From an uncultured Candidatus Saccharibacteria bacterium (GTDB lineage: Bacteria; Patescibacteriota; WWE3; UBA101185; UBA10185), in assembly GCA_964510435.1 (NCBI GenBank), contig CAZEBU010000002.1, positions 81,080 through 145,079 on the forward strand: a stretch of DNA of 64,000 bases. Direction: 5' to 3'. Of the stretch, positions 5,089 to 23,297 are shown one piece after another. Within the stretch, counting starts at the first letter, position 1. Each line of letters begins with the position of its first letter. A program made the position numbers and the translations under genes. Under the pieces are notes generated by a model that worked only from the letters and a program-made list of their open reading frames with translations, had not been told where the DNA came from and searched no databases.

Positions 5089-5220
5089 ATGAAAACAAAG
5101 TTAATTGTGATTTCCAGTTTGGCAATCTTAATACTAATTCTGGCCGGTGTGTCGTGGGCTGCATTCGGAGATAGAAGTAAGATCTTAGGGAGCAGTTTTT
5201 CTGTGGGGAGTGTTACCTAA
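5089..5220 (+). CDS. small predicted signal-peptide/membrane peptide (43 aa)
   Basis: ATG 4 nt after the radC stop, preceded by a ggaggtgaag RBS. Encodes MKTKLIVISSLAILILILAGVSWAAFGDRSKILGSSFSVGSVT. Hand-counted; overlaps the 3' end of the convergent ORF 5185-5598. Confidence 0.35.
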   Translation: MKTKLIVISSLAILILILAGVSWAAFGDRSKILGSSFSVGSVT

Positions 5221-5598
5221 TTCAATAGTAGATACCTTTATCTCCCCATCAATCAAAATATGGTCTTTATAGACAACAAGTTTCTTTACCCTAGACCTCA
5301 GTAGTTCTCTTTTTAGTAGACCAGATGCATTTCCCTCCCTTATTAGTTCATTGTACTTATCAATAAACTCCTCTCTGGCTTTTGTTAACGCGCTTTTCCT
5401 AACTTTGAAAATTTTAAATTCTCCCAATTCACCTTTTCTTTCTCCTAGCTGTGTGGATAGAGACTCACGTTCTTTACTAATTTCTTTCAGTTTAGTATCA
5501 AGGAGGTCTTCTCTAAATCTCTTTTTTACAAATTCCTCAACAGGGTAAGTACAATCAAATAGGAATAAGTGTGTCGAGATGAAGATTATAGGGTACAC
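5185..5598 (-). CDS. hypothetical coiled-coil protein
   Basis: 137-aa ORF, charged and helical (KLKEISKERESLSTQLGERKGELGEF...). I recognise no family. Confidence 0.4.
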   Translation of the reverse strand: MYPIIFISTHLFLFDCTYPVEEFVKKRFREDLLDTKLKEISKERESLSTQLGERKGELGEFKIFKVRKSALTKAREEFIDKYNELIREGNASGLLKRELLRSRVKKLVVYKDHILIDGEIKVSTIELGNTPHRKTAP

Positions 5599-5724
5599 GA
5601 AACTAGAAAATATCTCAAAAAAACAGCTTTAAACGTCGTTTAATAAATGATATACGACATGCTCACAAATAGTTCTTTTATAGATAAGCTGATTTTAGTG
5701 CTAGTGAGGTTATAATCGTGTTTT

Positions 5725-6441
5725 TTATGATACTGGCTTAATAACATCAGCATATGGTGCAACAAATTGAGTACCTTCATCGGAGACAATTGGTGTTTCT
5801 TCTTTAATCGTTTTCCTGTTTTCTTCAGCAAGTTCCTGCTTAGAAATATCATAGTAAATCTCTCCTCCACTTTTAAGGTAATCACTTTTAACTTTTTTAT
5901 CACTTATATCGATAATGATTTTAACCTTTGATAGAAGATCAAGAGATAAAATGTCTGCCTTTTTACACTTCTTTTGTAGATTACCAATGTGCACGCTGTA
6001 GACATCCAGTAGGCTTTCGTTTACTTCTTTATCTTTAAGCGAGGTCATTATTGCATTTACTTCTTCTTCAAGATATTGGGTATCAGAGTTTATAGTCTCT
6101 ATTAAAGAATACAAATTTGAGTAATCATTAATGATATCAATACTCAGAATTTTAAGGCTTAAACCTGAGCTTAAAAATAATTTATAAAACCTGAGCATAA
6201 GTCTAATTACATTATCTTCATGATCGAAGGAAGCTTCTAAAGTTCTTAGGTTTCTGGACATATTTACTCGTAGTGGTATTAGCTCGTGTTCAATTTGGAC
6301 AATTGTGTTCCTATGATCAATATACTTATCTCTACGTAATTCTCTTAAGCGTCTTTTAGATTCAAAGTGATCTGACCATATACCAGCAAATAAACCACCT
6401 GAAAAAGCTGATAATAATATTAATATGGCATCTTCCTTCAT
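5725..6441 (-). CDS. hypothetical membrane-anchored protein
   Basis: 238 aa; one N-terminal TM helix (AILILLSAFSGGLFAGIW) then a helical soluble domain. I recognise no family. Confidence 0.5.
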   Translation of the reverse strand: MKEDAILILLSAFSGGLFAGIWSDHFESKRRLRELRRDKYIDHRNTIVQIEHELIPLRVNMSRNLRTLEASFDHEDNVIRLMLRFYKLFLSSGLSLKILSIDIINDYSNLYSLIETINSDTQYLEEEVNAIMTSLKDKEVNESLLDVYSVHIGNLQKKCKKADILSLDLLSKVKIIIDISDKKVKSDYLKSGGEIYYDISKQELAEENRKTIKEETPIVSDEGTQFVAPYADVIKPVS

Positions 6442-6527
6442 ATATGTATATTATATGTCAGTTTAGTTGTAATATATCCTTACAGGCACCACGCTAGTTC
6501 ATTAATGCAACAATAGTGATTGTGGTA

Positions 6528-6556
6528 TTTACAAAATTATAAATGGTTGCTAAAAT
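6528..6556 (+). promoter_or_regulatory. sigma70-like promoter (-35 TTTACA, 17-nt spacer, extended -10 TGcTAAAAT)
   Basis: tttaca at 6528-6533 and tgctaaaat at 6548-6556. The predicted transcription start is near 6563, at the base of a structured region. Confidence 0.45.
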
Positions 6557-6562
6557 GTAAGC

Positions 6563-6655
6563 GTGCTAGTCGGGCGAAAGCCCTTCTTCAGCTAAGACAT
6601 GTCTAAGCCGAGAGACTAGCACACTAAGAGCGCCTTTTCTGGCGCTTCTTTTTAT
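6563..6655 (+). ncRNA. candidate small RNA with a three-way-junction fold, ending in an intrinsic terminator
   Basis: A 9-bp outer stem gtgctagtc/gactagcac (6563-6571 / 6614-6622) encloses hairpins gggcGAAAgccc and gctaagacatgtctaagc. A GC stem agagcgcc..ggcgct (6627-6647) plus a cUUUUUaUU tract follows. Sits directly downstream of the promoter above and is antisense to the last ~11 codons of ORF 6624-7061. Confidence 0.4.
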
Positions 6656-7061
6656 TAGATTTCATTTTATTCTTATTCATAACACTTCCAAGTTTGTAAA
6701 TATTGTTATAGATTCCTATTTTTTCAACGACTACTTTTATCTTCATTCTTGGGGATACTGGATGAATAAGCTCATAACTTATAAGGTCTTTCATCTTACC
6801 CTTATATTTTTTCTTTCTCCTTCTTATTTCTGAAATACTCTCACAATTTTCAATGACCTCTGGTGCGTATTGTAAACACCTAAGTCTCATATATTGATCG
6901 CTAATATTTCTAGGCATTCTATTTGAGTCGTAAATGAGATGATTAAATCCTTCTGATGTGAAATGAACGTCAGATTTTAGAACAGGACAATAAACCTTTT
7001 TAATTTTTTTGTAGTCTTTACGCTTTTCTTCAATTAATTTCTGTATATCTTTCGTGATCAA
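6624..7061 (-). CDS. hypothetical highly basic protein
   Basis: 145 aa; a cysteine-containing N-terminal half and an extremely K/R-rich C-terminus (KNKMKSNKKKRQKRRS). No family recognised. Confidence 0.45.
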   Translation of the reverse strand: MITKDIQKLIEEKRKDYKKIKKVYCPVLKSDVHFTSEGFNHLIYDSNRMPRNISDQYMRLRCLQYAPEVIENCESISEIRRRKKKYKGKMKDLISYELIHPVSPRMKIKVVVEKIGIYNNIYKLGSVMNKNKMKSNKKKRQKRRS

Positions 7062-7313
7062 TTATCTGTCTTTCTTATAGTACTTTTATAAAACAATAAG
7101 CTGGTCTACTACCAATCCCTTGCTTTTTTAACGGTAACTCTCTTTAGAAATTCCTGCAAAAGTCGCTATTTTGCGCCCATAAAGTAGCACTCCAAGGTCT
7201 TAGGTGTCAAGTGGTGATTTTCTAGGTACGCGCAACAATTAAACATAACATCCAGGAGTCCCGTTAAATTTATTGTAAGCAAGCTTTTATAACCATCGAT
7301 AGTGGTATATACC

Positions 7314-7814
7314 TCACTCCGAGTTTATATTTTGCCAAAATATCTTTGGGTGGGGATATCCACCATAAATGGCGGCACTCTTATAAGCCTTTTTTACATT
7401 CTTTAAACCCTGCGTAGTCAAAACTTTGGTTAAACGCCCCCTGTACAGTTCTCTCGAAAGCTTTGGTTTAAACACAGGCATGCAAATCCAGTCCAGTATT
7501 TCCTCAATCAATGTATGCTCTTCATCCCTAAGATTTCCTGCTTTAATAGAGTAGCCTTTATTAGTCTTTTCAGTTTTATCACTATATATAGTCTTGTTAG
7601 AGTTCATCCTGTGGTACGTTCTATGGGGAATCTTTGATTCATTCTGTGGTGCAAATCCAATCACAGAGTCCACTTCATTTATCGTTACAACAGTTCCCTT
7701 TCTTGAAGGGCTCTGCTCTATTAACTGGTACACGTTTTCTAGTCTTTTAAGTGCCTTGCCTACAGTTCTGTGGTCACATCCAAACTCTCTGGCTATTTCT
7801 CTCCAACCACACAC
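7314..7814 (-). CDS. N-terminal HTH-domain protein (possible mobile-element or phage remnant)
   Basis: 166 aa with a GTG start. Residues 5-25 (REIAREFGCDHRTVGKALKRL) form a classic HTH like those of transposase OrfA or terminase small subunits. An in-frame stop lies 2 codons upstream, so the N-terminus is intact. Confidence 0.45.
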   Translation of the reverse strand: MCGWREIAREFGCDHRTVGKALKRLENVYQLIEQSPSRKGTVVTINEVDSVIGFAPQNESKIPHRTYHRMNSNKTIYSDKTEKTNKGYSIKAGNLRDEEHTLIEEILDWICMPVFKPKLSRELYRGRLTKVLTTQGLKNVKKAYKSAAIYGGYPHPKIFWQNINSE

Positions 7815-8000
7815 GCACTACCCACGTTTTAGGGTGTATACCTTACCCGCACTTTTAACAGCACCAGCTGAAATTCTTGTTCTAAGAAGTAAAAGGGTAT
7901 AAATATGCTTAGCTAGATAGTCTTCCCCAAATACACTATTTAAATTCGAGGGAATTGGGATTTTATAACTTGATTTAATTATGTCAATATTATTCATCTA

Positions 8001-8189
8001 TCAACTCTTCTCGGTCAAAATAATGTACCCCTTTCCCAAACATGCGTGGCACACTCTTCTATCAAAGGAAACAGTCCCAAACCCATTACAGACCAGGCAT
8101 TTATGCGGTTTTAAATCATTTCTATTTTTCATCGTTTTATCCATCTTTTTTATTTCGCTTTCAACAAAAAGGCTGACATATACACCCAA
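8001..8189 (-). CDS. small zinc-ribbon protein (CxxC...CxxC)
   Basis: 62 aa; KCLVCNGFGTVSFDRRVCHACLGKG carries two CxxC pairs. Could be a real small protein or spurious. Confidence 0.3.
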   Translation of the reverse strand: MGVYVSLFVESEIKKMDKTMKNRNDLKPHKCLVCNGFGTVSFDRRVCHACLGKGYIILTEKS

Positions 8190-8494
8190 TTCCTTGGATA
8201 GATATACCGGCTTTTCAGCAGGAACTCTGCTGTCACCTTTTTTACTGCAGCATTATAGACATGTTTTTTAAGTTTATGCAAATGCCGTATTTTGCTTTAA
8301 CCACAGTAAATCATAAAATATATTATTTTAAAATATTTCAAGATTAATAATTTTTTAATTTTTGGGAAGTACGATGTTGGAATGAAAAATACAAGGAAAC
8401 TCCTTAAGTTAATTGATTTACTAGCTCACCTAAACAAGAAAACAGGTAAAAGATACTATGTTTTAGTAACAATAGATGGTTCCTGGTAAAGAAA

Positions 8495-9064
8495 CTACAC
8501 GCCAATTCCTAGTATGTAAACGGGAATATCTATATCTGAAACTCCTCTGGCATTTAAATCCCATACAAACTGTTCAAAATACGACACGCCAGTAGACATC
8601 TTTGCCGCCAACTCTTTCACAGGAACTATCTCAACTCCGGCATCAATATGCCCTAAGTTACTAAAAATGGTCATTTTAGCGCATACATTGTAAACCATAA
8701 AAGAATACTTACCGAATTGCACCTCAACACCTAGCTTATTTTTTATAAAGTCCATTTCCCTGTATGCATTATTAATTTTTATTGGAGAATACCCGTCTAT
8801 AAAGTATTCTGTCGGGTAATCGCATTTCTCTCTTATTCCATATTGCCACCCTTTAGATTTAAAGATTCTTTTAAACTCGTTATTCAATTTTCGTGGAGAG
8901 TACAGTGTCTTACCTGGCATAGTTTTTTCTTTGCTCTCCTTGCTAAAACTCTTTAAAGCATCGTTTAAACCGATTGCTTCTTCAATCTCTTTTAACTCTT
9001 GACTATAATTATTTTTTACATAATCCTCGCCATTAGCGAAGGAATACCTTCCAAATATTTTCAT
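8495..9064 (-). CDS. type II restriction endonuclease, BamHI/BglII/BstYI family
   Basis: 189 aa. IDGY...GVEVQFGKYSF...LGHIDAGVEIVPVKELAAK follows the BamHI pattern (D94 ... GMEFETGNIS ... LKHGEIDLAIILMPIKQLAYY). A Gln occupies the position of BamHI Glu113, as in BglII. Sits 2 nt downstream of a methyltransferase gene. Confidence 0.6.
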   Translation of the reverse strand: MKIFGRYSFANGEDYVKNNYSQELKEIEEAIGLNDALKSFSKESKEKTMPGKTLYSPRKLNNEFKRIFKSKGWQYGIREKCDYPTEYFIDGYSPIKINNAYREMDFIKNKLGVEVQFGKYSFMVYNVCAKMTIFSNLGHIDAGVEIVPVKELAAKMSTGVSYFEQFVWDLNARGVSDIDIPVYILGIGV

Positions 9065-9066
9065 CT

Positions 9067-10005
9067 TTATTTAATCCAACTTATTGGTACCTTCGATACC
9101 TTTTCTTTTCCTGTTGGTTTGTATACTGGTTTACCTAGAGGCCTTATTCTTAATTTTCCAGCTCTTAATTTAGCAATTCTCTTCTCGGCTAAGCTAACAT
9201 ATTTTGCTTCCATTTCCATACCTAATGCATCCCTATTATGCATAATAGCACCAATAACCGTGGAACCCACACCCATAAACGGGTCGTAAACCAAATCTCC
9301 TTCGTTTGTTAATGCTAGAACACATCTCTGAACCAATTCCACGGGAAATTGACAGGGATGACCAGTCTTTTCAGGATGATTGCTTTTTACATTAGGTATT
9401 TCCCAAATTTCCTTCTCCCAATCCCCACAAATTATCTCCCAAAAATCTGAAGGATTCTTTCCTCTTGGATTACCAGAAGGTTTACCTAAATTTTTACCTT
9501 TATAGGAAAGCTTTCCTGGGTACTTTGCAGGAACTCTTACATTATCAAGGTTGAACACATACTCTTTATTCTTATCATTTTTTGTGAACCATAATATTGT
9601 CTCGTACCTACCCGAAAACCTTTTACTAGCGTGGAGTCCGTGACCAAAATGCCAGATTATTCTATTCCTTAGATGAAATCCAACGTCTTTAAAAATATTA
9701 TAAAAATAAATATCTAAGGGAAAAACTTCGCCTTTTTTGATATAGTTTCCAACCTCCCATGCTAAACTGCCGCCGTCTCTTATTTTGGAGTAAATTGCTC
9801 GAGCAAAATCTTTATAAGGATGAAGGTACTTTTCAAAATCTTTTCTTTTCTCATATTCCTTTCCAATATTGTATGGTGGAGAGGTTATAAGTAATTGTAT
9901 GCTATCATCTTCCAATTTTTTTACATGTTTGAATGTATCAACTTGGAGAATATCGTATTTACCAAATTTTTTTTGCATGTTTAATCCCAACTTTGACTGT
10001 GCCAT
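9067..10005 (-). CDS. DNA methyltransferase, beta-class (SPPY motif IV before FxGxG motif I), probable N4-cytosine or N6-adenine type II MTase
   Basis: 312 aa; LLITSPPYNIGKEY (motif IV) followed later by DPFMGVGST (motif I). This order matches the N4C/N6A beta group that includes M.BamHI and M.PvuII. Confidence 0.85.
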   Translation of the reverse strand: MAQSKLGLNMQKKFGKYDILQVDTFKHVKKLEDDSIQLLITSPPYNIGKEYEKRKDFEKYLHPYKDFARAIYSKIRDGGSLAWEVGNYIKKGEVFPLDIYFYNIFKDVGFHLRNRIIWHFGHGLHASKRFSGRYETILWFTKNDKNKEYVFNLDNVRVPAKYPGKLSYKGKNLGKPSGNPRGKNPSDFWEIICGDWEKEIWEIPNVKSNHPEKTGHPCQFPVELVQRCVLALTNEGDLVYDPFMGVGSTVIGAIMHNRDALGMEMEAKYVSLAEKRIAKLRAGKLRIRPLGKPVYKPTGKEKVSKVPISWIK

Positions 10006-10151
10006 AAACCTATGTTATCACACACACAAAACTATCAATTATATACCGGGTCATTACTAAACAATGAGGTTGTGAATTTGTGATTTATATTTTCAAAAAA
10101 TAAGGAATACCAATACATTCATTATAGTTACTTTCTTGGTAGGAAGTTTCC

Positions 10152-11432
10152 CTAAAACGCATCCAATTCAGCAAAGGACGGATTATTGACAATTTCCTCT
10201 ACAGCATCGCTATCAAATTTTTCGTTCTGCCAAAAACCCCGAAGTTCCAAATCTTTTGTTGCAAGGGGGTATATCCATGCAGTAAACACTTTATCTGCTT
10301 TATCAATAAATATTATCCTTACCTCCACACCTCCAGCAAGAGAACCACTAAGTGGAAACGTGACAAATTTGCTTCTATAATAACTATTGTCAAAATTCTT
10401 CAAACCAGTAATTTCGGTTTCTAAACCAACTATAGCTAGATGTGACACGCCGTCATTACCCCCGTCAAGATAATTATCTAAGGCTTCTCTCAAGAAAGTC
10501 ACATACTCCAAGTCACTAATATTCTTTCTCCATTCTAAGTATTCTTCGTAATCGCCTATAGCTGGTTGTGGAAAGGTATCACCAGCATTATAAATATCTT
10601 CAATCTCTATTTTTGGTTGCTGTGCAGTTAACCCATTAGCTTCGCTAGGCTCAGTGTGCTCTTTAGCCCCGTTAGAATCATAAAACTTAAGGTCAGTCGG
10701 AAGATTGAATTTATTAGGCTCATAGGTAGTAATTTCTAGCAATATTGATATGCCTGTGACTAAAGTGACAAGTACTAAAGATACTTCTAAAAATCTTAGA
10801 ATTTTTCTTCTTCCCCAGAAATTATTAAAAAACTTGAATGCTAATATAAACAAAGTAAACGATGCCAGTAATAACGGTAATATTTCTTCAGGAATACTTG
10901 GTTTGGGTGAGTACCCTATAAAAGCACCTATAATTGCGTATAAAATCAGTAAAAAGAGAAGTAAAACTAACCAAAATAATACCTTGACTATTTCGTCGGT
11001 TTTCCTATAGGAGAAAGCCAGACGCGTATATATTTTCTGTATTAATTCCTTAGTATATCTAAAACCATACAACTTAATTAATAATATTGTTCCTATTAAA
11101 AATGTTATCATTCTCCAAATATTATCTGAGAACCAAGCGCTATCTGAGAATTTAAACTCTGCAATCGGATTTATAACCACAATTAACAATATATAAACTC
11201 TTACCCAAGTCATGTTTTTACTCTGATATTCTTTATATGCAAGGTAGATTAGTGATAAGAAAATAATTATCTTGAAGTTATAGAATGTATTACTATTTGA
11301 AAGGTAACTAGGCTGTGTGGCCAACAACCAAATAAATAAAAATAACAAAACTAGTGGTAAACTTTTCAGTATAACCGAGTCAGACTTTATCATTGATAGT
11401 ATTTTCTTATTGTAAGACTCTTTTAGTTCCAT
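10152..11432 (-). CDS. hypothetical polytopic membrane protein with C-terminal soluble domain
   Basis: 426 aa; about 7 hydrophobic helices in the first ~240 aa, then an acidic soluble domain. No family recognised. Confidence 0.55.
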   Translation of the reverse strand: MELKESYNKKILSMIKSDSVILKSLPLVLLFLFIWLLATQPSYLSNSNTFYNFKIIIFLSLIYLAYKEYQSKNMTWVRVYILLIVVINPIAEFKFSDSAWFSDNIWRMITFLIGTILLIKLYGFRYTKELIQKIYTRLAFSYRKTDEIVKVLFWLVLLLFLLILYAIIGAFIGYSPKPSIPEEILPLLLASFTLFILAFKFFNNFWGRRKILRFLEVSLVLVTLVTGISILLEITTYEPNKFNLPTDLKFYDSNGAKEHTEPSEANGLTAQQPKIEIEDIYNAGDTFPQPAIGDYEEYLEWRKNISDLEYVTFLREALDNYLDGGNDGVSHLAIVGLETEITGLKNFDNSYYRSKFVTFPLSGSLAGGVEVRIIFIDKADKVFTAWIYPLATKDLELRGFWQNEKFDSDAVEEIVNNPSFAELDAF

Positions 11433-11685
11433 GGTATCCCAAACTGATTATTTTACTTATCTCTCTAATTAATCCTTATCTTTTTTACCTACTGCTCTTC
11501 GGAGTTCCTTTTTAGCAAGTGGAAAACTTATTATTCTTGATATTTTGTACTTTACTTCGAAATATTAACCACTTTTTTCAAGAAAAAATACAAATCCTTC
11601 CCACAAAATCATTTTACATCATAAACTATATGTTTACTTCCACACTGTAAGGTATAGAAATAAACTCAATTAGGCTGCTCTTTCC

Positions 11686-12153
11686 GTGGGGAGCGCAGAT
11701 ATCAAGCTTTTGGAAGATCTCGCAGCAGGTACCAATCCGGAAAACCTCGTAGACGAGCTGCCCGGACCGTCCTTTAGTGGGCTCCATCCCAATTGGACAG
11801 AAGATTATCCGCTAAAAATCTATAATAACGCTACGGGTCATATTCAACTAACCTCCAACGCCGACTATGAAACTATCAATGATCCGGATGATTTAAGACA
11901 AATAATCTATGTTGAACCCATTAATTGGAGTGATACAGATAACAATGGCTTGGTCGAAGAAGGAGAACTCGGTTCTTCTTTTGGCAGGAAGACCATCATC
12001 AAGTGGAAAACAGAAGGTTTTGACCTAAGCTCTATGAGCTCGGGTTCGGTGAAGGGAATGGTTTTAAGATTCTCCACGGATAATGTGTCGGACACAAAAC
12101 AGGGAAAGAGCGCTATTTTCGATTTCGTATTCGACTCTCTAGGACTGGAATAA
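11686..12153 (+). CDS. hypothetical protein
   Basis: 155 aa with a GTG start; an in-frame stop lies 5 codons upstream. Acidic, no recognisable motif. Confidence 0.4.
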   Translation: MGSADIKLLEDLAAGTNPENLVDELPGPSFSGLHPNWTEDYPLKIYNNATGHIQLTSNADYETINDPDDLRQIIYVEPINWSDTDNNGLVEEGELGSSFGRKTIIKWKTEGFDLSSMSSGSVKGMVLRFSTDNVSDTKQGKSAIFDFVFDSLGLE

Positions 12154-12160
12154 ACGTTTA

Positions 12161-12190
12161 GAAGCCTCACCCGGGAGAGGCTTCTATTCT
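12161..12190 (+). terminator. stem-loop downstream of ORF 11686-12153
   Basis: gaagcctc-acccggga-gaggcttc is a perfect 8-bp stem, followed by a weak U-tract (tattctgtc). Confidence 0.4.
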
Positions 12191-12224: not shown

Positions 12225-14798
12225 GTGCTGATACTGCCCAAATTGATCTATAACTTTATCTATTGGTGGATCTATGAGATACCAAGAAACACTTTTAATG
12301 TTCTTAAAAAGATCACCTATTTTGTAAACAACGAATTTTCTTTTACCTTAAACATCAAACTTATTTTCACACCTCTCTACGGCGACAACACAATCATAGG
12401 CAGGGTAATTGGTTTTATCTTAAGAATAATTTTTATAGTTGTCGGATTTTTCTTTGTAGGATTTCTAGCCTTAGCTTCTGTGATCTTACCAACCTCTTGG
12501 TATCTCCTACCACTTATCATGTTCTATTATCTTGGCTTTTGGTCCCTACCTATCGTCGCAGCTATGTTTTTATACCATATCTACATCACCATTGATCAAC
12601 CTGATAAAAGAGTGGAAAATGTGGATGAAGAAAACAAGTTATTTTCTTTTAGGCCTCAAGTAAAGGAAATAATTAGGAAAATAAAGAAAAACCCCTCACA
12701 GGCTATAGCAAGTTTTATGAAATCTCCCGAAATTAACTCCTTGTTGGAAAAAGCAGAACTTACCGATATCAATTTCCCTGCAAAAATCGGCCAAGTAGAG
12801 AAACTCTCCACTAAAAAAGTAGAGGTTTCATCCTTTGTCTACGGCAAAAAGAACAGATCCAGATATGTAGAAAAAGAGCATTTACTTCTCGGTTTGCTTT
12901 CCTCCATTCCCGGTATAGATAATATCCTTTCGGAATTTGGCATTGAACTTAAAACTATTGAAGAAACCGCTTTGTGGATTGTCGGGAAAAGAGAGGATGA
13001 ATCCAAGCTCTACTTCTGGCAGGAAGATTACGAAACATCAACCATATCAGGTTTCGGTCATGGCCTCATCGGCAGAGTTACGCCCCATCTTGATGCAATT
13101 TCAGTTGATTATACTAAAATGGCTAAGAAAGGCCGGCTTAAAAACATTATTGGCAGGGAAGACGAAATTAAGAAAATTGCTCAATTGCTTGGCGGTTCTA
13201 GAGAAAATGTCTTACTGATCGGAGAACCCGGATGTGGAAAAACCTCTATCGTTATGGGCATGGCGCACAGAATTATGCATGGGACAAAATACAAAACTTT
13301 GCAAAACAAAAGGATCGTTAACTTACAAACCGGAAGCCTGATTGCGGGGTCAAAAACAACCGGTGAAATTGCCGAAAAACTAAAAGACGCACTTGATGAT
13401 GCTATCGGTTCTGGAGATATTATCCTCTTTATTGACGAGATTCATGCACTAGTTGGTTCTGTTAACGAAGGAGAGGGTTACTCCACAATATTCTCTATCT
13501 TAGAACCTCATTTATCCTCAAATCAGCTGCAGTTTATAGGGGCTACAAGCATAGAAAACTATCGTAAGTATATTGAATCCATAGGTTCTTTTTCAAGACT
13601 ATTTGAAATTGTAGAAATCCCTGAATCCAACCAAGAAGATACCTTGGAAATACTTAAATACATAGCTGATCTGCAAGAAGTTACTTTTGGTGTCAGAATA
13701 ACCATGCCTGCACTCTTAACAATTTTAAAACTCTCAGGAAAACTAATTCATAACCGAGTCCTTCCCGATAAAGCCATAGATGTGCTCATCAGATCCGTAG
13801 CCTTAGTCAATGATTCAACTAGGGTAGTCACTTCTAAAGTTGTGGAACAAGAAATATCCGAAATGACGCATATTCCCGTTACGGCAGTTACAGAAGAGGA
13901 GTCAGAAAAGCTTCTTAACATCTATAGAGAGATGAAAAAGTATGTGGTAGGACAAGATCACGCTCTAGAAAAAATCTCCTCAGCTTTAAAAAGAGCCAGA
14001 GTGGGAATAAGAGATGAGAAAAAGCCTATCGCCAGCTTTTTGTTTGTAGGTACAACAGGCGTAGGAAAAACAGAAACAGCAAAAACTCTCGGTAAGGTTT
14101 ATTTTGGAGATGAAACTAATATGATCCGCTTGGATATGAGTGAATATCAACACGTTGACAGCATCGAAAAATTAATTGGTTCCTCAGACGGAAAAACAAG
14201 AGGTCTGCTGACAGAGGCAGTTCGGTCAAAACCTTTTGCCGTGATACTTTTAGACGAAATTGAAAAGGCGCACCATAAAATTTTGCTTACCTTCCTGCAG
14301 GTATTGGACGACGCCCGCTTAACTGACTCCACAGGAAGAACAGTTGACTTCACCAACACAATTATTATTGCCACCAGCAACGTTGGGACAAAGCAAATTC
14401 AAAGCATTACTGAAAAAAGTGGGTCATACGAGGAAATCGAGATCGTCGCCTTAAAAGCGGTAAGAGAAAACTTCGCACCGGAGTTTCTTAATAGATTTAC
14501 GGATATTATTGTCTATAAACCCCTAGATCTAGAACACGTTCGAAAAATTGCCCGCATTTTACTATATGACGTGAAAGGGCGTACTCAAGAGCAAAACGTC
14601 AAGATTTCCTTCTCAGAGGAATTGATCGATGAATTAGTTAAAAGAGGCTACAATCCACAGTGGGGTGCCCGACCTATGGCCAGGGTAATAGAAGATTCCG
14701 TGGAAACTCATATAGCCGAGAAGCTTCTTACCAAGGAGATAAAGAGGGGGGACGTCGTCAAACTTGGCATAGAAGTGTTTGATGAGCGTCCCCATTAA
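12225..14798 (+). CDS. ClpA/ClpB-like double-AAA+ ATPase with N-terminal transmembrane segment
   Basis: 857 aa. NBD1 Walker A is GEPGCGKTS with Walker B ILFIDEIH; NBD2 Walker A is GTTGVGKTE with Walker B ILLDEIE and a sensor region. There is a single Clp_N-like repeat (EHLLLGLLSS). The first ~130 aa hold 3-4 hydrophobic helices. No long M-domain and no IGF/IGL ClpP-docking loop. Confidence 0.85.
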   Translation: MLILPKLIYNFIYWWIYEIPRNTFNVLKKITYFVNNEFSFTLNIKLIFTPLYGDNTIIGRVIGFILRIIFIVVGFFFVGFLALASVILPTSWYLLPLIMFYYLGFWSLPIVAAMFLYHIYITIDQPDKRVENVDEENKLFSFRPQVKEIIRKIKKNPSQAIASFMKSPEINSLLEKAELTDINFPAKIGQVEKLSTKKVEVSSFVYGKKNRSRYVEKEHLLLGLLSSIPGIDNILSEFGIELKTIEETALWIVGKREDESKLYFWQEDYETSTISGFGHGLIGRVTPHLDAISVDYTKMAKKGRLKNIIGREDEIKKIAQLLGGSRENVLLIGEPGCGKTSIVMGMAHRIMHGTKYKTLQNKRIVNLQTGSLIAGSKTTGEIAEKLKDALDDAIGSGDIILFIDEIHALVGSVNEGEGYSTIFSILEPHLSSNQLQFIGATSIENYRKYIESIGSFSRLFEIVEIPESNQEDTLEILKYIADLQEVTFGVRITMPALLTILKLSGKLIHNRVLPDKAIDVLIRSVALVNDSTRVVTSKVVEQEISEMTHIPVTAVTEEESEKLLNIYREMKKYVVGQDHALEKISSALKRARVGIRDEKKPIASFLFVGTTGVGKTETAKTLGKVYFGDETNMIRLDMSEYQHVDSIEKLIGSSDGKTRGLLTEAVRSKPFAVILLDEIEKAHHKILLTFLQVLDDARLTDSTGRTVDFTNTIIIATSNVGTKQIQSITEKSGSYEEIEIVALKAVRENFAPEFLNRFTDIIVYKPLDLEHVRKIARILLYDVKGRTQEQNVKISFSEELIDELVKRGYNPQWGARPMARVIEDSVETHIAEKLLTKEIKRGDVVKLGIEVFDERPH

Positions 14799-21069: not shown

Positions 21070-21690
21070 TCAGAACAACTTAAGTTGTCCATCTTGCTCA
21101 TCATCCTCTTTTTCCTCGATAAAATCACCTGATTTGATCTGTTCCAGCACCTCAGGAATTCTCAAAAAATCCTTTTTCAATGCCTCCAGCATCTTGGGGT
21201 TTCTTAAGCCGGCAGCGGGGTGGTAAATGGGAAAAACAAAGAAATTAGTAGTTTTAATTAATTCACCATGATCTCTAGATATCTTTCCCGCCTTGTAAAA
21301 AAAATTCAAAGCAAAACGTCCTAGACTAACAATCAACACCGGATCGATAGTTTTGATCTGAGCAGCTAAATATGGGATGCAGGCGTGTATCTCGTCAGGA
21401 AGCGGGTCTCTATTTCCGGGAGGACGATGTTTGATAATGTTACCAATCCAAACATCTTCTCTCTTGTAACCCAGTTCGGCTAATAGTCTCTCCAATAACA
21501 TCCCCGCCCTGCCTACAAACGGTCTGCCTGTTTCATCCTCCACAGCACCCGGAGCTTCTCCAATAAATAGTAGTTCCGAATCAACGTTACCCTCACCGGG
21601 AACGCCATGTTTTGCTTGCTTGTACAATCTACATTTTTTGCAATTTATAACATTGGTATCTATTTGTTTTACAATTTCCTCTTTTGTCAT
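21070..21690 (-). CDS. uracil-DNA glycosylase, family 4
   Basis: 206 aa; CKKCRLYK...GEGN...LLFIGEAPG...GRPFVGRAG is the family-4 UDG signature with iron-sulfur cysteines. Confidence 0.85.
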   Translation of the reverse strand: MTKEEIVKQIDTNVINCKKCRLYKQAKHGVPGEGNVDSELLFIGEAPGAVEDETGRPFVGRAGMLLERLLAELGYKREDVWIGNIIKHRPPGNRDPLPDEIHACIPYLAAQIKTIDPVLIVSLGRFALNFFYKAGKISRDHGELIKTTNFFVFPIYHPAAGLRNPKMLEALKKDFLRIPEVLEQIKSGDFIEEKEDDEQDGQLKLF

Positions 21691-22214
21691 TTGATCTTCC
21701 CTAATTGTTCCAAGGTACTTATCACCTTTAAAGTGATGCGCCGCTTTCCGCGTTGGTATATTCGATCCGAAATAAAATAAGCCTCTCTAAAAGTCATCCA
21801 GAAATACTGGTCAAACTGAGTTTCACTTATTTCCAATTTGTCCGAAGAGGAATCAACGGTACAAAAATAGTATTCCTTGCCCATCATAGCCACTTCATTA
21901 CCCCCATCATCAAGTAATGTGCCCACTTTATGCCTTCCCGGTTTAAACTCCATTCTATCTATTTCCACAAACTCCGCATTACTATATGCAAGATTCTCTG
22001 CAAAACTCTTTCCCAACTCTTCGACTATTACCCTTTTTAAGGCGCTTATAGGCTCTTCTTTATTATTGATCCTCCCTTGGGGAAGTTGCCATAATCCATA
22101 TTCCTTTTTATAAAACATAAGTATTTTATTTTGGTTAATGACGCAGGCCACTACTCCAGGTCTGAAACCTTCTTTCCTTACTTCATCCAGTTGTTTAGGC
22201 GTAGGTGTTTTCAT
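21687..22214 (-). CDS. NUDIX hydrolase
   Basis: 175 aa; Nudix box QLPQGRINNKEEPISALKRVIVEELG (Gx5Ex7REUxEExGU). Confidence 0.8.
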   Translation of the reverse strand: MKTPTPKQLDEVRKEGFRPGVVACVINQNKILMFYKKEYGLWQLPQGRINNKEEPISALKRVIVEELGKSFAENLAYSNAEFVEIDRMEFKPGRHKVGTLLDDGGNEVAMMGKEYYFCTVDSSSDKLEISETQFDQYFWMTFREAYFISDRIYQRGKRRITLKVISTLEQLGKIK

Positions 22215-22217
22215 AAC

Positions 22218-23297
22218 TCACTGAGGCAGGTATTGTTTGAGATTCTCTTGGGTTAAGTGAACTTCTGTTGCAGAGCCTTCCACTATGTTTTTGGCTACTT
22301 TCCTACATATTGATTCCAGTGTTCTTTCCAAACTTCTGATTCCTGTGTCATAACCAAACGGCCTAACTATGCCCGGCCAAAGGTCGTTATCAATAACCAG
22401 CTCACCGGGCTTAAGACCGGATCTTTCAAAAATTTGGGGCAGTAGGAAATCTCTAGAAATAATCACCTTTTCTTCATCTGTGTAGGAGGGCATCTTGATC
22501 ACTTCCATCCTATCCATTAAGGCAGTGCTTATCGTACCCGTATTATTAGCCGAACACACAAAAAGAACTTCGGATAGATCAACTGGAAAATCCACATAGT
22601 GGTCACGAAATTCATTACTTTGATTGGGATCTAGAATTTCTAATAATACCGCCATGATATCACTCAGCAAACCTCTCTCTCCACTGGCCTTATCTATTTC
22701 ATCCAGTAAAATAACAGGGTTTCTGGCACCCGTTTTTATCAAAGCCTTAACTATTTGTCCGGGCTCTGCTTCCGGCATAGACTTACTGCGCCCCCTAAGT
22801 TCCAAGGTAGAACCAATACCGCCCATGGCAATTCGAACAAATTTACGATCCAAAGACTTAGCTATGGACATGGCTAAAGTCGTTTTTCCTACACCTTGCA
22901 GACCAACAAACAATAAAACCGGTGTTTTAGCAAACATATTACCACCTCGTTTATTAATAAGGATCAAGGACGCCAGATATTCTAGAATTCTCTCCTTAAC
23001 AAAATACATTCCGTAGTGGGTTGAATCTAAAATTTCCTTGGTGTTATCCAGATCCAACTTATCCACGGTTCTTTTATCCCAAGGTATTTTGGAGATTATA
23101 TTTACATACCGGGAGAGAATATCAAACTCCGAGGAATAATGCCCCATCTTGGCCATCCTGTTTAACCTATTTAGCATTTGCCCAAGTCTACTTTCCAACA
23201 ACGGGGGCAATCCCGAAATCTCATCGAGCGTTTTTGACAACTGCTCTAATTCTTCAAAGATATATTTATCTACATCACTCATTATTTCTAACCACAA
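22218..23297 (-). CDS. Lon-type AAA+ ATPase module without LAN or protease domains
   Basis: 359 aa. Collinear with E. coli Lon residues ~230-600 (VPWNARS.../ILDTDHYGLERVKDRILEYLA/GPPGVGKTSL.../LLDEIDK.../MEVI). Ours reads IPWDKRTV...ILDSTHYGMYFVKERILEYLA, GLQGVGKTTL, LLDEIDK, MEVIKMPSYTDEEK. The ORF ends at the AAA/protease domain boundary; no Ser-Lys protease domain is present. Confidence 0.8.
   Translation of the reverse strand: MWLEIMSDVDKYIFEELEQLSKTLDEISGLPPLLESRLGQMLNRLNRMAKMGHYSSEFDILSRYVNIISKIPWDKRTVDKLDLDNTKEILDSTHYGMYFVKERILEYLASLILINKRGGNMFAKTPVLLFVGLQGVGKTTLAMSIAKSLDRKFVRIAMGGIGSTLELRGRSKSMPEAEPGQIVKALIKTGARNPVILLDEIDKASGERGLLSDIMAVLLEILDPNQSNEFRDHYVDFPVDLSEVLFVCSANNTGTISTALMDRMEVIKMPSYTDEEKVIISRDFLLPQIFERSGLKPGELVIDNDLWPGIVRPFGYDTGIRSLERTLESICRKVAKNIVEGSATEVHLTQENLKQYLPQ

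Follow-up and report, generated by a model that had tools for sequence, protein, structure and literature searches.

What does a Clp-type ATPase do once it is built into the membrane and has lost the elements by which its soluble relatives are recognized? The question is raised by an open reading frame at 12225..14798 (+) in a 64,000-nucleotide stretch of contig CAZEBU010000002.1, from an uncultured bacterium of the Patescibacteria lineage WWE3 (the window, in what follows). From a GTG start it encodes a complete protein of 857 residues, which consists of an N-terminal segment that we call the X-module, a Clp_N-like domain, a collar motif, two nucleotide-binding domains (NBD1 and NBD2) and a D2-small domain. 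Our answer, held with about as much belief as doubt, is that the protein is a membrane-embedded remodelling ATPase that acts independently of ClpP and DnaK and without classical threading by aromatic paddles, and that it is the fused version of a two-component system of the Patescibacteria, or Candidate Phyla Radiation (CPR).

The reading frame can be taken as a real, conserved gene. A search with the full-length protein recovers ∼100 clusters of ∼850 residues (46–66% identity, 98–100% coverage), below which the scores drop sharply to ordinary ClpC proteins of 810 residues with Clp_N and UVR domains. The homologues belong to candidate division WWE3 and to further Patescibacteria, and 45 reference-genome loci from these groups carry the fused gene; unless otherwise given, residue conservation was counted in an alignment of 90 full-length relatives. 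In Pfam, AAA (residues 329–466), AAA_lid_9 (470–562), AAA_2 (600–760) and ClpB_D2-small (767–846) all score above cut-off, so that the two tandem AAA+ modules of Clp/Hsp100 class I are present, and the top Foldseek matches for the AAA+ body are ClpC and ClpB. The nearest NCBIfam models all fall far below their curated cut-offs: ClpB (TIGR03346, 559 bits vs 1232), ClpA (TIGR02639, 501 vs 993), ClpK (456 vs 1900), ClpG (445 vs 1900) and ClpV (443 vs 885). PADLOC gives no full-length match to a defence protein, and only a partial similarity of NBD2 to DolB/PDC-M37B (117 bits over ∼200 residues). By homology the protein is a member of the Clp/Hsp100 superfamily, but it falls short of the defining features of ClpA, ClpB, ClpC, ClpV, ClpK and ClpG alike.

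The most distinctive part is the X-module (residues 1–125; 12225..12599, +), which is related to stand-alone proteins of ∼110 residues. It is made up of a cytoplasmic helix (4–38), a short helix (40–45), a conserved loop (38–67) with the consensus SFTLNxRLLFTPL[FY]GDxTxxGRxIGFxxR, and a transmembrane (TM) hairpin. All of its consensus features (W[WY]..P, F.PL[FY]GD, GR..G...R, a TM segment and W..LP) occur in the window protein. P50 and R67 are invariant, and W14, P20, N35, N43, F48, G53, D54, G59, R60, G63, P89, W92 and P96 are ≥90% conserved. TM helix 1 (∼59–88; 12399..12488, +) has a Kyte-Doolittle peak of 2.84, and is followed by an uncharged turn that contains the conserved P89, W92 and P96 (12489..12512, +) and by TM helix 2 (∼97–122; 12513..12590, +), which would take the chain back into the cytoplasm. 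The earlier note had counted three or four hydrophobic helices here; there are only two strong TM segments, preceded by the long cytoplasmic helix. The membrane anchoring that it proposed is borne out, and the hydrophobic segments are kept in every one of the 90 full-length homologues. Lysine and arginine together number 6.2 ahead of TM1 and again 6.2 behind TM2, against 0 in the turn that joins them, and by the positive-inside rule this indicates a predicted N-in/C-in hairpin with the ATPase on the cytoplasmic side. The X-module as a whole finds no match in Pfam, NCBIfam, PADLOC or the sequences of the Protein Data Bank (PDB), nor by Foldseek.

Relatives of the module were sought through a profile of residues 1–130, which gave 645 matches among 1.84 billion representative proteins (190 at E≤1e-10). 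The top 150 of these divide into 95 stand-alone proteins (≤165 residues, without a Walker motif), 25 full-length Clp fusions and 30 truncated fusions, with no other architecture among them. The fused and stand-alone families are aligned by hhalign with 99.8% probability (E 1.6e-29); the match stops at about residue 103, and TM helix 2 is without a full counterpart in the stand-alone proteins. The latter are annotated only as “hypothetical protein”, belong to no Pfam, NCBIfam or PADLOC family, and have no relative of solved structure by sequence or fold. In their model (pLDDT, the predicted local distance difference test, 95.8), a long N-terminal helix is followed by a short one, by the conserved PL[YF]GD loop and by a hydrophobic helix that is also long.

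In each of the six loci with sufficient surrounding DNA, a stand-alone X gene of ∼110 codons lies directly upstream, on the same strand, of a gene for a two-ring Clp-like protein of 829–868 residues. The gaps between the two genes are +16 (L006), −17 (L010), −11 (L011), −1 (L012), +7 (L013) and 0 nt (L059), and a short contig (L007), which is partial, shows the same start of the arrangement. A third architecture is found in P0105, P0159 and P0162 (∼775–785 residues), where X is joined to the ATPase and the Clp_N region between them is small or missing. Because other Patescibacteria encode X in a gene of its own, immediately upstream of that for a Clp-like ATPase, and because X is fused to nothing but Clp among the top 150 matches, the window gene reads as a two-component membrane AAA+ system in fused form. 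Its N-terminus had been described as a generic TM anchor, a description that has to give way to that of a distinct conserved module, encoded elsewhere by a gene of its own beside Clp-like ATPases.

Behind the membrane module lies an internal Clp_N-like domain (residues ∼135–262; 12627..13010, +). Pfam sees in it only one marginal Clp_N repeat (208–247; 19.9 bits vs a cut-off of 20.7), which corresponds to the single repeat previously reported, but profile-profile alignment of family residues 123–300 with the N-domains of ClpA, ClpB and ClpC (94% probability, E 8.6e-8) covers canonical positions 33–166, and the AlphaFold model (mean pLDDT 84.8) places nine helices in 135–259. The region is thus best described as a putative diverged, near-complete N-domain. 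It follows the X-module, which speaks against the idea that TM helices had taken the place of Clp_N.

Between the N-domain and the rings lies the collar (263–298; 13011..13118, +), a family-specific motif with the sequence FWQEDYETSTISGFGHGLIGRVTPHLDAISVDYTK in the query and the consensus FWQEDYExPxxGGxGKGMTGRVTPxLDSxSxDFTK in the fused family. It is the most conserved segment outside the ATPase domains, and is modelled as a loop. The query agrees with the broader pattern [GN][RK][GA][MWL]T.R.TP.LD at all positions except for Ile282 in place of T (GHGLIGRVTPHLD).

The catalytic residues of both rings are retained. NBD1 (large domain and lid, 301–545; 13125..13859, +) has the Walker A sequence GEPGCGKTS (333–341), Walker B residues D404/E405, sensor-1 T441 and R458. 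NBD2 (large domain, 546–765; 13860..14519, +) has GTTGVGKTE (609–617), with K615, D677/E678, N719 and R757 invariant, and the D2-small domain (766–850; 14520..14774, +) contributes the sensor-2 motif GAR (R816). Overall, K339, D404, E405, T441, K615, T616, D677, E678, N719, R757 and R816 vary little or not at all, and the Walker A and B motifs, sensor-1, the NBD2 arginine finger and sensor-2 are invariant or ≥95% conserved. R458 is kept in 78 of the 90 proteins. The second NBD1 arginine (equivalent to ClpB R332) is replaced by leucine in 84 of the 90, L459 in the query.

It is in the pore that the rings depart from the standard Clp/Hsp100 structure, as the tyrosines of class I pore loop 1 (KYR in D1, GYVG in D2) are missing. 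In the NBD1 loop, AGSKTTGEI (374–382; 13344..13370, +), Thr378 stands at the position of ClpB Y251 and ClpA Y259, so that AGSKTTGE in the query is aligned with AG[AT]KYRGE in ClpA, ClpB and ClpC. Family members have mostly Thr (45), Ser (23), Asn (10) or Gly (7) at this position and none has an aromatic residue (0/90), but two have a Tyr one residue later. The NBD2 loop, IGSSDGKTRG (651–660; 14175..14204, +), is four residues shorter than GAPPGYVGYEEGG and has Lys657 at the Tyr position (GSSDGKTR----G vs GAPPGYVG[YFH][ED][EQ]GG in ClpA, ClpB and ClpC). Here the relatives have Ser (37), Lys (25), Arg (9) or Gln (4), with one aromatic exception, and 89 of the 90 share the four-residue deletion. 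In more divergent fusions the NBD2 loop is of full length, but the Tyr is still lost (GAPPGSKDSSAGG, GAPPGHRGAEEGG). In ClpA, the substitutions Y259A or Y540A abolish or hinder degradation of all tested substrates (PMC8666677). With the catalytic residues kept and with pore tyrosines lost that are critical in ClpA, the two domains look like active ATPase rings around a probably non-canonical pore. Their description as canonical is therefore right for Walker A/B, sensor-1, the NBD2 arginine finger and sensor-2, and wrong for the pore tyrosines and the second NBD1 arginine.

The two accessory elements by which Hsp100 rings are coupled to other machines were examined by aligning the query to authentic ClpA and ClpB of E. 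coli and to two ClpC proteins. The PDK motif of NBD1 and the Walker A of NBD2 lie 95 residues apart (92–96 in the family), compared with 100 in ClpA, 157 in ClpC and 218 in the ClpB of E. coli, and in the PDB search ClpA aligns in one stretch, while ClpB and ClpC align in two. UVR (PF02151) is absent from the Pfam assignments precomputed for the full-length family matches. The junction is therefore ClpA-like, and the M-domain is missing, as the earlier note had held. It was likewise correct about the ClpP-docking loop. In the corresponding segment (TSN...PEF, 719–752; 14379..14480, +; 32 residues), the query and 86 of 87 relatives have no hydrophobic-Gly-hydrophobic tripeptide between the sensor-1 TSN and PEF, where ClpA carries IGL and the longer loop of ClpC carries LGF. 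In the absence of an IGF/IGL/LGF loop, docking to ClpP by the known route would be impossible, and there is no obvious ClpP partnership. The conserved C-terminal LG[IVLM]EVF (846–851) was considered as a docking motif for ClpP or another peptidase, and was rejected because it lies in and beside a predicted β-strand of D2-small rather than in a flexible loop.

The partners encoded by the split loci (L006, L010–L013 and L059) share most of these peculiarities. The canonical pore tyrosines, the M-domain and the ClpP tripeptide are absent from six of six. Five of six have the shortened NBD2 loop, with DG[KR/S/E], and five of six have the collar motif, as NRAWT[AS]RPTP.LD in four and as the variant NRAMTSKITSLLD in L010p; it was not detected in L059p. 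They differ from the fused form in having a TM pair of their own and a degenerate NBD1, in which Walker A reads GKE or GRT or is absent, and Walker B reads IPD, IPH, LPY or IPE. NBD2 alone is intact in these proteins, and in the fused WWE3 form NBD1 is intact as well, so that fused and split forms are a natural series leading from a ring with two motors to one with a single motor. NBD2 would therefore be the constant motor, and the system's constant components are X, the collar and NBD2 in active form. The association of the ATPase with X is obligate.

From these parts a working model can be drawn. By the predicted topology, the X-module supplies a conserved cytoplasmic juxtamembrane element of ∼60 residues and a TM helix, and the second TM helix returns the chain, so that the Clp_N-like domain, the collar (TGRVTP.LD) and both rings lie on the cytoplasmic face. 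We infer that the protein forms a hexamer on the inner side of the membrane, held by 12 TM helices, which would work without a peptidase and without coupling to DnaK (Hsp70). Cycles driven by NBD2 would remodel, assemble or dislodge a membrane-associated client, which may be recognized by the X-module, the N-domain and the collar and not by tyrosine paddles. Processive threading of a polypeptide would not take place, and the mode of action would parallel, in a bacterial protein with two rings, the one supposed for Torsins.

Some points weigh against this model. Some AAA+ rings, such as the D1 ring of Cdc48/p97, pass their substrate with non-aromatic pore loops, and therefore the loss of the tyrosines does not strictly exclude threading. 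The arginine fingers and full ATPase sites are kept, unlike in Torsins, and this suggests that the motor is vigorous rather than a slow switch. Finally, both L011 and L013 carry a clpP gene (PF00574; 3401–3985 and 3337–3924, respectively) two genes upstream of the X-Clp pair, in the order pyrophosphatase, ClpP, 2-hydroxyacid dehydrogenase, X, Clp-like. These are Parcubacteria-type genomes, and the two loci are closely syntenic and represent one observation, from which it follows that at least some CPR lineages with the X-Clp system own a ClpP. A bolder version of the model, in which an essential, CPR-wide machine has abandoned threading altogether and serves either as a Torsin-like remodeller of the envelope or membrane through X, or as an Hsp100 that moves a non-protein polymer, is conceivable but lies on the doubtful side.

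The alternative that survives best is the one closest to textbook behaviour, namely a membrane-tethered unfoldase or disaggregase that threads misfolded or mislocalized membrane proteins in the manner of Msp1, or of the ATPase part of FtsH, without a protease. It would account for the two complete ATPase sites with their hexamer-type arginine finger and sensor residues, for the retention of a Clp_N-like substrate/adaptor domain and for the membrane anchoring, and the AAA+ body superposes on substrate-bound ClpC and ClpB with TM-scores of ∼0.75–0.8 (target-normalized). We nevertheless regard it as unlikely, since apart from the one NBD2 exception no aromatic residue occupies the pore-loop-1 Tyr positions in 90 fused members, the NBD2 loop is shortened by four residues, and the Tyr is lost in the divergent fusions and split partners too. 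Exchange of the same tyrosines for alanine is what abolishes or hinders the activity of ClpA (PMC8666677), and the M-domain by which disaggregation is coupled to Hsp70 is missing. The assignment as an unfoldase or disaggregase, as originally worded, is not sustained for these reasons. A function in the quality control of membrane proteins, offered along with it, is possible and has no specific support.

A translocase or remodeller of a non-protein polyanion at the membrane (nucleic acid, polyphosphate, or a lipid-linked or teichoic-type polymer) would make use of polar and basic pore loops (K-T/S-x-G; D-G-K/S-S/T-K) that could contact phosphates, as in ring ATPases that translocate nucleic acid. 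Several neighbours act in DNA metabolism, namely PolX (L012, L013), uracil-DNA glycosylase (UDG; L012, L059), PolA with an apurinic/apyrimidinic endonuclease (L006), a DinB-type IMS protein (L004), and RadC and FtsK in the region of the window. Such neighbours are housekeeping genes in small collinear genomes, however, and none of them is constant, while Pfam detects no nucleic-acid-binding domain in the protein. We know of no Clp/Hsp100 ring that translocates a non-protein polymer, which counts further against this explanation, and we consider it quite improbable.

Less probable still is a membrane-bound Clp protease resembling FtsH, in which the ring would feed ClpP through a non-canonical docking surface. 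The clpP genes of L011 and L013 could be cited for it, as could the divergent member P0102, which has VGI at about the position of the ClpA IGL. Against it stand the 86 of 87 members without a tripeptide, a segment length that is ClpB-like, and the fact that the two syntenic loci count once. Furthermore, no clpP, clpX or clpS was found in the 64-kb window, nor within ±10 kb of the gene in the 45 fused-type loci (677 kb in total).

The weakest alternative, an annotation artefact in which the true start lies downstream and the hydrophobic N-terminus is untranslated, could appeal only to the GTG start without an obvious Shine-Dalgarno sequence, and is effectively refuted by residue-level conservation from position ∼4 onward in 90 homologues, by homology of the N-terminus to an independent protein family, and by the position of the in-frame starts that would remove the TM part (GTG86, ATG99, ATG114 and GTG130), all of them inside or after conserved sequence. 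A check for a real downstream start thus supports none, and conservation in the homologues argues that the N-terminus is translated.

The genomic surroundings of the gene were compared with those of its relatives. The genome is of low GC content (about 0.34–0.43), and the order of genes is collinear across WWE3: ribosomal proteins, rpoA, a helix-turn-helix protein, RadC, an ORF of 155 codons, clp, prfB, a rodZ-like gene, ftsK, RNase J, UDG and NUDIX. The idea that the fused gene sits in a conserved operon was rejected, since P0031 and P0053 have different neighbourhoods. The 155-codon ORF (11686–12153, +) adjoins clp, and is adjacent to it in 41 of 45 related loci. We do not read this as functional coupling, since the whole region is collinear, and the ORF was dismissed as a dedicated partner because it is also absent from the split-type loci and is 5′-truncated while clp is intact. 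Between this gene and the clp start lies a terminator-like hairpin, a perfect palindrome with a 10-bp stem (TAGAAGCCTC ... GAGGCTTCTA; 12159..12186, no strand assigned), which scored as terminator-like on the minus strand; the GTG of clp follows 38 nt downstream.

The 155-codon ORF is itself a 5′-truncated copy of a protein of ∼195 residues conserved in 41 of 45 relatives. These begin with a signal peptide or TM segment, followed by AAF[GT]DKG.ILGSSFSVGSADIKLL, and we take their N-terminus to resemble the signals of SipW-type TasA/camelysin proteins. In the window, an in-frame stop (11671–11673) replaces the signal part, at the edge of an inserted island. The protein belongs to no Pfam or NCBIfam family. 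In one locus (L005), the ∼195-residue homologue is followed by a signal peptidase I of the SipW/archaeal type (TIGR02228, 93.9 bits).

The island is a segment of ∼6.5 kb (window ∼5100–11680) with eight ORFs and a GC content of 0.34–0.35 vs 0.38–0.41, and has no counterpart in any of the 45 syntenic loci. It contains genes for an LPD3-domain protein (6624–7061, −), a BglII-like restriction endonuclease (8495–9064, −), an N4/N6 DNA methylase (9067–10005, −) and a DUF6804 membrane protein (10152–11432, −), and is probably an inserted restriction-modification island.

Downstream, UDG and NUDIX genes are located at 21070–22214, 6–7 kb from clp, and UDG and/or NUDIX (and PolX) genes recur beside the X-Clp pair in the split loci L012, L013 and L059; the recurrence may be a remnant of ancestral synteny rather than a functional link. 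The adjacent gene (22218–23297, −) encodes a 358-residue protein with AAA and Lon_lid domains; a Lon protease domain is missing from the ORF. The protein is conserved in at least 15 related loci, a count limited by the extent of the flanks, and may be a peptidase-less Lon-like ATPase or a split Lon. One family member, with the upstream gene for the secreted protein, is found on a 2.5-kb contig (L043, JBAZEV010000237.1) that has been binned as “Candidatus Bathyarchaeia archaeon”, and is most likely mis-binned Patescibacteria.

The Clp/Hsp100 proteins are the textbook soluble threading machines, with tyrosine pore loops and either a ClpP-docking loop or an M-domain for Hsp70 coupling, and here is a clade without any of these. 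The family represents a widespread membrane machine of the ultra-small CPR/Patescibacteria, and its retention in very small genomes suggests an important function. In the searchable literature we came across no account of the X family or of a two-ring Hsp100 integral to the membrane, and searches on membrane-anchored Hsp100 proteins, on CPR Clp proteins and on WWE3 ClpP gave no description of the family. The window protein would be the first membrane-integral Hsp100 with two rings. It offers a natural experiment, an Hsp100 ring without aromatic paddles, to which the split relatives add the case of a D1 pseudo-ATPase, and it assigns a partner to a family of “hypothetical” membrane proteins of roughly 100 residues.

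Among known systems, ClpA resembles the remodelling ATPase proposed here in its two AAA+ rings, its short junction without a coiled-coil M-domain and its D2-small domain, and the two align continuously (query 289–847 with ClpA 169–733). The IGL loop, the KYR and GYVG tyrosines and the pair of NBD1 arginines are found in ClpA, and the query has none of them in canonical form; the ClpA N-domain is soluble, has two repeats and binds ClpS, whereas the query is membrane-embedded. The best matches of the NBDs are to ClpB of T. thermophilus (458 bits) and ClpC of S. aureus (438 bits), in agreement with Foldseek, and ClpB shares the lack of a ClpP loop and an equal length of the loop segment. The query differs from ClpB/Hsp104 and ClpC in that it has neither the coiled coil of the former nor the UVR-type hairpin of the latter, lacks the pore tyrosines and is anchored in the membrane. 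The short M-domain of ClpC, ClpE and ClpL, and the [VL]GF ClpP loop of ClpC and ClpE, are absent from it as well.

Anchored AAA+ rings are familiar from other clades, and FtsH has been called the one family of AAA+ proteases known to be anchored in the membrane (PMC8943139). FtsH and Msp1/ATAD1 share with the query an N-terminal TM anchor and a cytoplasmic ring at the membrane, but are single-ring members of the classical AAA clade with aromatic pore loops, and FtsH adds an M41 zinc peptidase domain; Pfam finds no peptidase domain in the window protein. An Hsp100 ring that operates at a membrane together with dedicated membrane proteins is seen in PTEX, where the ClpB-type HSP101 of Plasmodium is itself soluble, retains the pore tyrosines and the M-domain, and threads cargo into the EXP2 channel. 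Nothing seen in the window protein indicates a channel.

On the preferred reading, the closest functional analogue is the Torsin family, whose members are related to Clp/Hsp100 proteins, have an N-terminal hydrophobic domain and no aromatic pore loops, and rely on TM cofactors that complement the active site (PMC5425593). Derivation from Clp/Hsp100, association with the membrane, the loss of aromatic pore loops and a dedicated TM partner are thus common to both. Torsins are single rings in the lumen of the endoplasmic reticulum, and their own arginine finger is absent and is supplied by LAP1 or LULL1. The query differs in having two rings, in facing the cytoplasm, and in keeping the NBD2 arginine finger (R757) and sensor-2. 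The likeness is one of function, and it is in this sense that the window protein and its split relatives offer a bacterial comparison for the Torsin mechanism.

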